A stretch of 43,678 nt of DNA from a virus (lineage: Duplodnaviria > Heunggongvirae > Uroviricota > Caudoviricetes): the IMG/VR virus record IMGVR_UViG_2531839668_000011, positions 1-43,678 of that record. One strand, written 5' to 3'. Within the stretch, counting starts at the first letter, position 1. Each line of letters starts with the position of its first letter. This document shows positions 36,001-39,000 of this stretch, one piece after another. The position numbers were made by a program.

Positions 36001-39000
36001 AATAATATTGATATAACACTAAATGTTGTTGATTTATAATTGTCGATTTAGCAAAACAGAGAATGCTTTGAAAGTTTCACCGAGAAATATTTATTGTGAA
36101 CCTCCTTATTGTTTATCGACTTTTACTCTCCGCTCATTGCAGTACTGTCGGAGAAGGCTACTATGTACAAGAAGCAGCTAACATAAGCGAGCATCACTAT
36201 TGATATTAGGAAGAGTATATAAAAACTTCATGCTGAACCTTACAAAAGTAGGTAAACCGGCAATGGCCTAAGTGGCAGGGTCATGTTGATCCGGCACTGC
36301 CGAGCTAATAATTAACAAGCAAATCACTCTTTCTAATAATTTGTTGAAATAAACTAAATATGTATATGTTTACCAACAACCACATATGAACTACCTGCTT
36401 TGCTCCATGATTTTATTATTTCTAAATTATTATCTGAGCATATTTTACTTACAGTATCCACATCTAATAAACCATAGTAGAAAGCATTGCGAGAGTTTTG
36501 GTATATATACCCATGCAAATGTTTAATACCGCTCTCGTACCTCTTGAAATAAGAACTTTTGTATTGATTGACAATCAGTGCTTCACCATCACTCTTTAAT
36601 AATTCTCTAATCGCACTGAGGACTTTGTGAATTGTGGATTCACATGGAATTGCGGAAAGCACGTTTGCGCAAAGTATGAAATCATAATGATTTGTTATTT
36701 TATCTATATTTTCATAAGAAACAATATTAGCATTCTTATAGTTATTTATCACGTAATCTGGAATCGTGGTTTGTACACCTCTGATAATTTGCACTCTTTC
36801 TAGTTGTCTTCTGGAATCTAAAAATGTCACAGTTTCAAATTTATTTACTAATTGTTCTGAATATCTAAGTTTTCCACATCCAAAATCAAGGGCATTGCCA
36901 TTTTTATTAGTGCTTTCAATCTGTTTACAGAGATAGTTAGATGGCATAGTGTGCGGTTTCGCTGCATTTTCTGAACGTATGTTTATTCCATTTATTTTGT
37001 AATTCAAAATCAACCTCGTTTAAAAAATATTGTTATTGTTAAAGAATTCTTTTATTTTGCTATCAGGTATTTGTCTTACTTGGCTTTCTGTTCTTGGTTT
37101 AACTGATGCTATGAAAATAAGGAAGTCAAATGCGACAAGAGAAATAATCCACAACCAAAGATTAATTAAAGAGCCAGTAACAGAGAATATATTTGTTAAT
37201 TTGGCGATACTTATTATTAAAATAGTAACAAATGCGATTACTGTATGTTCAAAGAAAACCCAAAAGTAATAAACTTTGTTCCAGAAAAGTTCAACGTAAT
37301 GTTTGTCTTTTAACTCTTTAACTTCTGGGTAATACAGTTTACTCATTACCTTGTGAGATTCATCAGTAGTTAATTTTCTCGTAACGCCTGCAATTTTTGC
37401 TAATGGTTTAATAATTAAATGACTATCCCACATCTTCCTTATTCCAATAATTTTTGCTACATTATTATGTAGATCTAAAGCTCCACTAATTACTGACCAA
37501 AAAACTGAAGATGCAATTGGTAATATGCCAAAGGTTAATATCCATTTAATAAATTCCTCGTAGTCTTTAACGGGGGGGATATACTTGGCATTAATGCCAA
37601 CCAATGGCATGTAGCCATAAATGACTAATGATAGGTAAAATATAAATGTAGTAATAAAAGTCGCCTTATGGAGCATAGGCAACATTTCATTATAACTCTT
37701 TGGTGGTTCTAACATTTTACTCTCCAAACACTCAAAAAAAAGCTAATCTTCTATAATAACGAAATTCAGCTGGCACAATTAAAGATTAATTGCCACCAAT
37801 TTCTTGATTTTATAATTTTATCTAAATGTTTTTGATTAATCTAGTCCTAAAAGAAACCTACTGCATAAATATTTATGCTGATGACCCACTCCCTGTTCGT
37901 TAACACATAGCAACGTTAGTAATGCATCCTAAGTGATCAATATTTTTGCTAGCTTCATCTGCTCGCTCAAAGGGAACTATAATGTTGGCTTGCGTGTGAC
38001 TTGGCATGTTTAAAGAAGTGCTGGTGGTGACTGGTTGCTGTTTTCCATTTCCACAGAACAAAATCATAGAAACTATACCCAGTAGTTGTATTGAATCACT
38101 GACGAGACAGCCTCATATTTATCAGGACTGGTGTACGTCCAATACAGGAGGTTGTGGTGCTGGTTCTCAAATGTGCGCTGGCTATTGCTGCTGTAATGGC
38201 AATTTATTGTCTTGCTGTTGTTCTTATGGATCACCTTTCTGATTGATTTCATATTGGCGAGGTAACGGTAGTTAAGTAGAATTGCTGCGGGTGCTTGAGG
38301 CTATCTGCCTCGGGCATCAACACCAAAGGCAGATAGAGAAAAGCCCCAGTTAACATTACGCGTCCGGCAAGACGCTTAACATTAATCTGAGGCCATATCT
38401 ATGCTCTACACACGTAGGTTAGCCTCTTACGTGCCGAAAGGCAAGGAGAAGCAGGCTATGAAGCAGCAAAAGGCGATGTTAATCGCCCTGATCGTCATCT
38501 GTTTAACCGTCATAGTGACGGCACTGGTAACGAGGAAAGACCTCTGCGAGGTACGAATCCGAACCGGCCAGACGGAGGTCGCTGTCTTCACAGCTTACGA
38601 ACCTGAGGAGTAAGAGACCCGGCGGGGGAGTAATCTCCCGCCACCTCTGATGTGCCAGGCATCCTCAACGCACCCGCACTTAACCCGCTTCGGCGGGTTT
38701 TTGCATTAGTCTGGTTGACAAAAATAGAAAAATGCGAAAATATGTGGTTTACGAATTCTAAAAAAAGCGAAACTTGAAATGAATGAAAATCAGTTAGCTC
38801 CTTGTTGGGAATTTCAACCTTATCTTGCTGAAAACTATGTTCGCCACTTGTTGGCGGAGATCGCTAACGTACTTGAGCAGCTGTACTATCATAAGCACGC
38901 ATTAGACAGCAACTGGTCTGAAGGTGTAAGGGCTTATGATTGGGTCAGAAATCATCTTATTCAAAATGAAGATGCAATTCCTGGCCTTGAGATGATTTCC

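Follow-up and report, generated by a model that had tools for sequence, protein, structure and literature searches.

Two described kinds of very small membrane protein serve for comparison here. TisB, Ibs, Ldr, ShoB and DinQ are membrane-active type I toxins of 19-35 amino acids (aa) with a single hydrophobic helix, each expressed from a promoter of its own behind a structured leader and matched by a dedicated antisense or divergent small RNA. KdpF, AcrZ, MgtS and CydX, small regulatory proteins of Escherichia coli, are shorter than 50 aa and have one transmembrane helix with short conserved termini, and are often encoded by a terminal or overlapping cistron of an operon. In the hok locus of plasmid R1, mok overlaps hok in another frame. 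Among prophage loci, hokW-sokW of prophage Sp5 of Escherichia coli O157 Sakai functions as a type I system and, once the prophage is induced, accelerates phage release; both the toxicity of Hok and its neutralisation by Sok RNA have been shown experimentally (Takada et al., 2021; PMC8621323). The DNA analysed here, referred to as the window, is the whole 43,678-nucleotide (nt) stretch of the Caudoviricetes record IMGVR_UViG_2531839668_000011 in IMG/VR, which carries two hok/sok cassettes, each preceded by a different short hydrophobic open reading frame (ORF), here termed ORF-A and ORF-B. The original prediction, made from the sequence of the window, had described the cassettes as duplicated and the two ORFs as possible additional type I toxins or membrane peptides.

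We consider it likely that ORF-A and ORF-B, which represent two families with no relation to each other, are genuine and conserved genes that annotation mostly misses, and that they encode single-pass peptides of the inner membrane, accessories of the prophage and not toxins. Neither is read as a chance open frame, because comparative data show purifying selection in its own reading frame. In the arrangement proposed here, each prophage of the window carries a complete hok/sok cassette in the cargo slot of its early-right (nin) region. ORF-A would be the last cistron of the preceding early operon and would mark the left edge of a variable cargo site, filled by hok/sok, by other cargo or just by a terminator, while ORF-B would travel with hok as a moron-like unit consisting of about 205 nt of upstream DNA, the ORF itself and the hok promoter. 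Our best guess is that these products, as small membrane accessories, attach to a larger membrane protein of the host or the phage and modulate it, and are not antisense-controlled toxins. If made, they would be candidate prophage factors acting on the host membrane, with phage exclusion, lysis timing or modulation of Hok as conceivable roles.

ORF-A (5676..5759, plus strand) is a putative single-span small membrane protein gene with a predicted product of 27 aa, MTWPEAFTTVGIAMAVTLVVYSICRWG, in which residues 7-23 form the hydrophobic window (best 17-residue Kyte-Doolittle value 1.96). Its ATG overlaps, as ATGA, the TGA (5677-5679) of a gene for a 217-aa protein (5026..5679, plus strand), which has no Pfam match and of which the Prokaryotic Genome Annotation Pipeline (PGAP) annotates only a shorter version. 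ORF-A is probably translated by coupling, because of this overlap with the upstream stop and because its Shine-Dalgarno sequence, AGGAGG, lies within the last codons (QEVNQ*) of the upstream gene, 7 nt before the ATG. ORF-B (38157..38246, plus strand) likewise appears to be a single-span small membrane protein gene, with a predicted product of 29 aa, (M)LVLKCALAIAAVMAIYCLAVVLMDHLSD, a hydrophobic 17-residue stretch (Kyte-Doolittle 2.76) and AGGAGG (38146-38151) 5 nt before its GTG start; it is preceded by about 430 nt without coding sequence and, further upstream, by two minus-strand cargo genes. The GTG is retained in 115 of 117 copies, and the alternative GTG at 38154 is not the start, because the codon preceding 38157 varies. 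The Shine-Dalgarno regions of both ORFs are mostly unpaired in the centroid structure. The placement 5' of hok of two distinct hydrophobic ORFs of 27-29 aa, their good ribosome-binding sites and their unannotated status, all noted in the original prediction, were thus borne out, PGAP in RefSeq calling neither ORF.

Related loci were gathered from IMG/VR by exact-pattern scans, one anchored in the promoter and leader of hok (119 loci, of which 117, selected without regard to the small ORFs, were usable) and others anchored within each small ORF (about 120 loci each). Both peptides proved to be conserved in related prophages, one of the points on which the original prediction had made their standing depend. 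For ORF-A, 114 of 120 copies retain start and stop, the six failures comprising two copies with an internal stop at codon 3 and four with an N-terminal rearrangement. Within the family, the ratio of non-synonymous to synonymous variants (N/S) is 0.30-0.47 in frame and 0.9-1.8 in the other two frames, and half of the variants are synonymous against about 25% expected (p=4e-5). The DNA upstream of ORF-A comprises about 25 variant 3' ends from at least five gene classes; nearly all of these contexts retain the ATGA (or GTGA) overlap with GGAGG 7-10 nt upstream, and the start and stop codons of the ORF are the exact points at which homology to the flanking DNA is lost.

The decisive finding for ORF-A as a gene, judged from sequence comparison, is a diverged homologue, A', located immediately upstream of a third small ORF, class C, in the loci that carry the latter. 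Like ORF-A it comprises 27 codons, for the predicted peptide M(I/N)WPEAFAITGVA(I/M)AI(D/A)FLVYVICRWG, and begins in overlap with the stop codon of a preceding gene, here one for a DUF551 protein. Identity between A and A' amounts to 69% of nucleotides and 59-63% of residues (BLASTP E=2e-13); the ratio of non-synonymous to synonymous substitution rates (dN/dS) is 0.155 in the reading frame, and the two alternative frames give 0.74 and 2.6 (p=2.6e-4). Thirteen alignment columns are invariant, the ends reading M-x-W-P-E-A-F ... V-Y-x-I-C-R-W-G, and over the last eight codons (Y-x-I-C-R-W-G-stop) four synonymous changes accompany a single replacement. The family is 27 codons long, with a 25-codon MSRPDAF variant also present. 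A fusion of ORF-A with the 121-185-aa DUF551 proteins, or a programmed frameshift into it, was suggested by exact-sequence clusters and rejected, because those proteins end in ...QEVNQ without the peptide and no slippery site is common to the upstream contexts.

The A/A' family appears to be independent of hok. Downstream of ORF-A, the cassette is intact in 78 of 111 assessable copies, damaged or displaced in five and absent from 28, in which a terminator or other cargo directly follows the stop codon. Phage ArgO145 (L397, 1501-2220) carries a minus-strand type II toxin-antitoxin pair in place of hok/sok after ORF-A, and the site 3' of ORF-A therefore acts as an exchangeable cargo slot, often holding toxin-antitoxin modules of differing types. 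In PhiR49_2, ORF-A precedes xis and int, which places it in the other early arm, with no hok downstream.

ORF-B has its own homologue in class C, a 34-aa ORF, MSDDISLAMEGALAVIAVVGVYCLVVFLMDRLGN, which is 50% identical to it over 28 residues (BLASTP E=4e-9). Between the two, dN/dS is 0.28 in the reading frame, as opposed to 0.5 and 1.06 in the alternative frames (p=0.007). Among ORF-B copies the N/S ratio is 0.31-0.51 in frame (p=0.016 for the hok-anchored loci, a set that had meanwhile been enlarged by loci from later scans for the small ORFs). BLASTP gave no alignment of A with C, nor of C with Hok, and A/A' and B/C are accordingly treated as two families that, by their sequences, seem unrelated.

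The association with hok is much closer for this second family. ORF-B lies directly upstream of hok in 96 of 107 assessable copies, and the 11 copies without hok form one lineage; class C precedes an intact hok in 106 copies and a damaged cassette in four, and no copy is without a cassette. A conservation profile over 114 loci delimits a conserved stretch of about 205 nt upstream of ORF-B (37952..38156, plus strand), beyond which the flanks are AT-rich and unrelated to one another; since this stretch is common to the loci, ORF-B and hok/sok move as one unit. A candidate ORF-B promoter read by eye (TTGAAT 38091-38096, 17 nt, CATATT 38114-38119) matches the consensus at 8 of 12 positions; a simple promoter scan found no convincing ORF-B promoter, these hexamers falling below its threshold. 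No terminator separates the ORF-B stop from the hok promoter, so that every transcript of ORF-B continues into hok.

The fullest arrangement found runs DUF551 gene, A', C, a 24-bp palindrome and hok/sok, and is represented in Sakai prophage Sp6 by ECs_1518, an unannotated A', ECs_5710 and ECs_1520 (mokC). The two loci of the window are reduced forms of it, one with only A and the other with only B. In the class C loci, which lie outside the window (e.g. L406:1028-1260 and many IMG/VR loci), ORF-C and the perfect 24-bp palindrome CCGATATGGGAATTCCCATATCGG are flanked by a direct repeat, GGGTAAAAACG, and ORF-A loci look like a class C site from which the segment holding ORF-C and the palindrome is missing; the segment may have entered by an insertion that duplicated its target, or may have been lost by a deletion across the repeats. 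The palindrome alone stands upstream of hok in 15 loci with no small ORF. Upstream of ORF-B, at 38016-38055, a stretch beginning GAAGTGCTGGTGGTGACTGGTTG and ending TTCCATTT aligns to the middle of ORF-A (5706-5745) with frameshifting gaps, and the motif TGAATCAATGAC, identical to the junction of DUF551 stop and ORF-A start, occurs in most ORF-B loci outside the window. An ORF-A relic upstream of ORF-B was considered on this basis and not retained, the local alignment score of 26 being reached by 1 of 200 shuffles, which is too weak for a claim.

Among the 117 hok-anchored loci, the position directly upstream of hok is occupied by ORF-A in 31 (two of these with the stop at codon 3), by class C in 28, by ORF-B in 22 and by an ORF-B remnant in three, the other 33 having no small ORF. 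The families are widespread in the species: of 5426 complete E. coli genomes, 1273 contain ORF-A DNA, 1579 ORF-B and 674 the A'+C locus (about 12-29%), the last with a median of two copies per genome. In the GenBank phage collection, ORF-A occurs in 11 records and ORF-B in four, and the A'+C arrangement in none. A degenerate search for the C-terminus of the A family, with one genome per species, returned only E. coli and Shigella, together with one misbinned contig. A phmmer search of the 30-aa form of ORF-B against 1.84 billion representative proteins gave ten matches at E<=0.001, nine of which are close relatives (83-93% identity, with differing start calls) and one a marginal match (33% identity) to an unrelated 253-aa protein.

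Annotation of these genes is sporadic. In RefSeq (e.g. O157:H16 98-3133) PGAP labels both hok genes hokD and leaves ORF-A and ORF-B unannotated. Some GenBank records label ORF-A variants 'bacteriophage protein' or 'prophage protein' and ORF-B forms 'membrane protein', the exact ORF-B peptide having been deposited once under that name (APK03751.1), and 'hypothetical protein' is a widespread label for class C (UniRef A0A0K4ZJX7, WP_001278450.1). Standard annotation thus nearly always overlooks ORF-A, A' and ORF-B despite their prevalence. Pfam, NCBIfam and PHROGs contain no significant family for either set of peptides; the best PHROGs matches of the A family are phrog_4612 (E=0.011-0.017) and phrog_38566 (E=0.0065), and the B/C family gave nothing below E=0.04 in these three collections. 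A full-text literature search with the peptide strings found no paper discussing the A/A' or B/C peptides, and they are not present in the supplements of the EDL933 translatome paper; a preprint on the Pas small RNA was set aside, as it concerns the lysis region, a different locus.

Published work supplies evidence of expression for class C. Ribosome profiling of uninduced E. coli O157 Sakai lists XECs145, called with 54 codons (Hucker et al., 2017; PMC5597208), and class C corresponds to its C-terminal 34 residues, now annotated as ECs_5710 in Sp6, next to mokC/hok; the start chosen in that study is too far upstream. In lysogeny broth (LB), XECs145 showed 79 reads per kilobase per million (RPKM) for RNA and 346 for footprints, a ribosome coverage value (RCV) of 4.35 and a coverage of 0.99, whereas the RCV in brain heart infusion (BHI) was 1.14; the authors predicted an inner-membrane location and classed the ORF as 'real' (PMC5597208). 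Ribosome-profiling data, which the original prediction had proposed to consult, thus exist for the class C homologue of ORF-B, both window ORFs being below the size limit of the study.

The hokW-sokW study touches on ORF-A itself. Cloning primer YO-432 (PMC8621323) begins at GAATCAATGACCTGGCCTGAAGC, so Sp5 hokW is also preceded by ORF-A. The primer corresponds to window positions 5670-5692, and the insert of pBAD18-hokW-sokW starts exactly at the ORF-A start codon. ORF-A goes unmentioned in that work, and arabinose induction of the construct caused no growth defect (PMC8621323); this lack of toxicity is weak evidence on ORF-A, because the native Shine-Dalgarno sequence was left out. The small peptides nonetheless bear on the published hokW-sokW results, as the construct carried ORF-A without comment.

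Both cassettes of the window are complete, ordinary and already known hok/sok type I loci of the hokD/hokW type, and in themselves offer nothing new. Their identification as hok toxin loci in the original prediction was upheld by Rfam, by Pfam and by the PGAP annotation. The Rfam model RF01794, a hok-leader model named 'sok', matches both copies on the plus strand over its full length with 117 and 114 bits (gathering score 59), and each cassette encodes a 51-aa Hok/Gef toxin matching PF01848 (HOK_GEF) with 82.9 bits in the ORF-B-associated copy (copy B) and 80.6 bits in the ORF-A-associated copy (copy A), against a cut-off of 22 bits; the exact Hok sequences of both cluster with HokD. The hok promoter of copy A (5766..5794, plus strand), read from the sequence, consists of a -35 TTTGCG at 5766-5771, a 17-nt spacer and a -10 TAGAAT at 5789-5794, and starts 6 nt past the ORF-A stop; that of copy B (38254..38282, plus strand; TTGGCG, 17 nt, TAGAAT) was flagged by the promoter scan and starts 7 nt past the ORF-B stop. 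The hok mRNAs extend over 5801..6214 and 38289..38702 (both plus strand), each with leader, mok/hok, fbi element and an intrinsic terminator (6195-6212 and 38682-38699, respectively) followed by a T-run. In copy B, the copy that was folded, the fbi element CCTCAACGCACCC (38653-38665) pairs with the 5' end of the mRNA, and the minimum-free-energy fold of the 414-nt transcript (z = -8.15 against shuffled controls) pairs GGGUGCUUGAG with CUCAACGCACCC in a long-range 5'-3' (tac/fbi) interaction like that of canonical hok mRNAs.

The mok-like ORFs have 70 codons, at 5914..6126 with hok at 5971-6126 (hokD, WP_000813262.1) and at 38401..38613 with hok at 38458-38613 (hokD, WP_000813254.1), both on the plus strand. 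They match phrog_251 'MokW-like host killing' and in some records are labelled 'MokW-like host killing protein' or 'regulatory protein MokC'; in both copies the mok-like ORF shares the frame of hok, and so reads as a 19-codon N-terminal extension of it. A minus-strand sok promoter is predicted in copy B at 38416..38444 (-35 TTGCCT 38444-38439, 17 nt, -10 TAACCT 38421-38416) by sequence analogy with sokW, and in copy A at 5929..5957 (-35 TTGCCT, -10 TAACCT) by analogy of position with copy B and sokW. The TTGCCT-17 nt-TAACCT element coincides with the sokW -10 mutated by primers YO-421/422 (PMC8621323), and is not flagged by the simple promoter scan. The predicted Sok RNA would run leftward, confined to the hok leader and ending short of ORF-B. 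The two copies differ by 3.5%, with two synonymous changes and one conservative change (L/I) within hok and one compensatory pair in the hairpin that follows the stop.

Over the small ORFs, the type I toxin architecture appears to be missing. Antisense promoters opposite the peptide ORFs, which the original prediction had proposed to look for, were not found over ORF-A or ORF-B in a sigma-70-like promoter scan, and neither ORF matched Rfam at E<=1, these antisense and small RNA scans being of limited sensitivity. RNA structure was not in excess on either strand, the fold z against shuffled controls being -0.37 and -0.03 on the plus strand and -0.25 and -0.10 on the minus strand, far from the value of the hok mRNA. 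The toxin reading is unsupported because of these three negative results over both ORFs. A separate ORF-A transcript with a structured leader was not found either, ORF-A overlapping the upstream stop, and so being coupled to the upstream gene, in all contexts. The peptides, with best Kyte-Doolittle windows of 1.96-2.95, have a net charge of 0 to -3 and no cationic tail of the kind typical of many type I toxins. Moreover, translation of the class C homologue is not switched off in unstressed lysogens, as its LB values show, and such strong ribosome occupancy is unlike that of a silenced toxin. Of the two possibilities first raised, that of membrane peptides agrees with the predicted single hydrophobic span, whereas that of extra type I toxins is not supported.

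The tie between B/C and Hok is the most interesting point to test, and it underlies the competing explanation that survives best, although we still hold it to be unlikely: that there is an extended prophage hok locus in which the B/C peptide, and possibly A/A', would be co-transcribed with hok and take a functional part, either tuning Hok in the membrane or shifting the balance of hok and sok transcripts by read-through. At least 90% of B and all assessable C lie directly 5' of this hok subtype, with a common left boundary about 205 nt upstream, and only 7 nt, with no terminator, separate the ORF-B stop from the hok -35. A, B or A'+C stands upstream in 81 of the 117 hok-anchored cassettes, which were chosen independently of the small ORFs, and HokW production needs prophage induction by a route that is unexplained (PMC8621323). 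Yet 33 of the 117 cassettes do without a small ORF and three more have only a B remnant, the lineage of 11 loci keeps B without hok, and C has no detectable sequence relationship to Hok. Tight linkage would in any case be expected of neighbours that move together, and no experimental hint points this way. A more specific proposal, which we regard as a long shot, makes A/A' and B/C protein-level accessory components of prophage hok loci that, for instance, restrain or potentiate the insertion or oligomerisation of Hok, or time Hok-assisted lysis after induction. If true, this would be a type I toxin system that is under RNA control and also has peptide partners dedicated to it, a combination of which we know of no description.

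It is also improbable, and slightly more so, that the ORFs are not functional and that the DNA is kept for another reason, for instance as a recombination linker bordering a cargo hotspot, as a part of the hok promoter that lies upstream of it or through recent spread, with the frames incidental. The narrow host range, the occasional nonsense alleles, the very limited variation over the last third of ORF-A and the absence of PGAP calls would fit this explanation, as would the last bases of ORF-A (GGGGATAAAAAC), which persist at the cassette edge even in loci with no ORF-A. It is at odds with the behaviour of both families after some 30% nucleotide divergence (A/A', B/C), where length, start, stop and amino acids are kept while third positions change, with the in-frame dN/dS of 0.155 and 0.28 against 0.5-2.6 out of frame, with the Shine-Dalgarno sequences retained in unrelated upstream contexts and with the ribosome footprints on class C. 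Least probable of all is that the peptides are further type I toxins, kept silent by an antisense or trans-acting small RNA that escaped detection. In favour of this are their small size, marked hydrophobicity and single span, their position beside a bona fide type I toxin and the tight linkage of B/C to hok, but the missing architecture, the charge, the translation in unstressed cells and, weakly, the harmless induction of the hokW-sokW clone all speak against it.

The reading we prefer, that of two families of accessory membrane peptides, has evidence to contend with as well. The Sakai profiling covered only ORFs of at least 30 aa (PMC5597208), so that ORF-A and ORF-B, being shorter, were never assessed in it, and the reads assigned to XECs145 may multi-map, because genomes with the locus carry a median of two copies. 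Eight of about 111 A' copies lack the last two residues, and the stop at codon 3 breaks 2 of 120 ORF-A copies. Within the A lineage, the 3' third of ORF-A is unusually invariant in DNA, which could indicate a DNA-level role at the cassette border. Both families are young, being found only in Escherichia and Shigella, and part of the conservation of the small ORFs may be hitch-hiking. Finally, no family, structure or partner pointed to a concrete biochemical function.

With regard to the window as a whole, self-alignment resolves it into two adjacent, related lambdoid prophages of E. coli with four common segments: 1-1140 = 30984-32123 (99%), 3657-4161 = 34362-34866 (94%), the hok cassette at 5782-6214 = 38270-38701 (96.5% over 433 nt) and 6273-6597 = 40977-41307 (82%). 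On the 5' side, the homology of the hok block sets in a little beyond either small ORF, in the spacer of the hok promoter; on the 3' side, it stops at the terminator T-run. The near-identical recurrence of hok leader, coding region and terminator reported in the original prediction is therefore real, and is seen by Rfam in both copies; calling the cassettes duplicated is misleading, since the repeat is one of four segments common to two prophages, each with its own cassette, and not a local duplication. The same DNA is found in complete E. coli genomes, e.g. O157:H16 98-3133. Prophage 1 opens with its immunity and early region, continues with lysis and head genes and closes at its right end with four tandem paralogous genes for NleG-family type III effectors of 195-213 aa (23325-26248; Pfam T3SS_NleG, 147-158 bits), which identify the host as an attaching-and-effacing E. 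coli, similar to enteropathogenic or enterohaemorrhagic strains; prophage 2 begins with an integrase gene (26757-27782, minus strand). Two identical genes for the DicF small RNA, one in each prophage (175-226 and 31158-31209; minus strand), lie inside the first common segment. Upstream of its lysis region, prophage 1 also carries three tRNA genes (10221-10467) followed by an STnc100 small RNA (10546-10735). A cargo island of prophage 2 (35140-37727), between the replication genes and ORF-B, holds a SMEK-domain gene on the plus strand and, on the minus strand, genes for an S-adenosylmethionine (SAM)-dependent methyltransferase and a 235-aa protein that appears multi-span by eye and has no Pfam match; the island may be a defence or modification module.

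Compared with described systems, the window cassettes share with hokW-sokW of Sp5 and with chromosomal hokD the 51-aa Hok/Gef toxin, the 70-codon mok-like ORF and the RF01794 leader (PMC8621323). With hokW-sokW they also share the location in the early region of a lambdoid prophage, and the sok promoter predicted here would occupy the position of that of sokW; copy A, like Sp5 hokW, is preceded by ORF-A. Nothing of substance sets the cassettes apart from these relatives. ORF-B resembles ECs_5710 (XECs145, WP_001278450.1; 34 aa, from O157 prophages), which has ribosome-profiling support (PMC5597208), in lying directly 5' of the hok promoter and in its single hydrophobic span; it differs in having a GTG start and no acidic N-terminal MSDDIS extension, in being neither followed by the 24-bp palindrome nor preceded by A', and in being unannotated in RefSeq. 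ORF-A and ORF-B are like TisB, Ibs, Ldr, ShoB and DinQ in size and in the single helix, whereas the antisense-RNA architecture of those toxins was not found here and NCBIfam and Pfam show no similarity to them. No homology to KdpF, AcrZ, MgtS or CydX was detected, the only match, of ORF-A to the KdpF model (E=0.11), being at chance level. A/A' and B/C differ from these host proteins in being prophage-borne and restricted to Escherichia and Shigella, and ORF-A resembles them in its position as a terminal, overlapping cistron.

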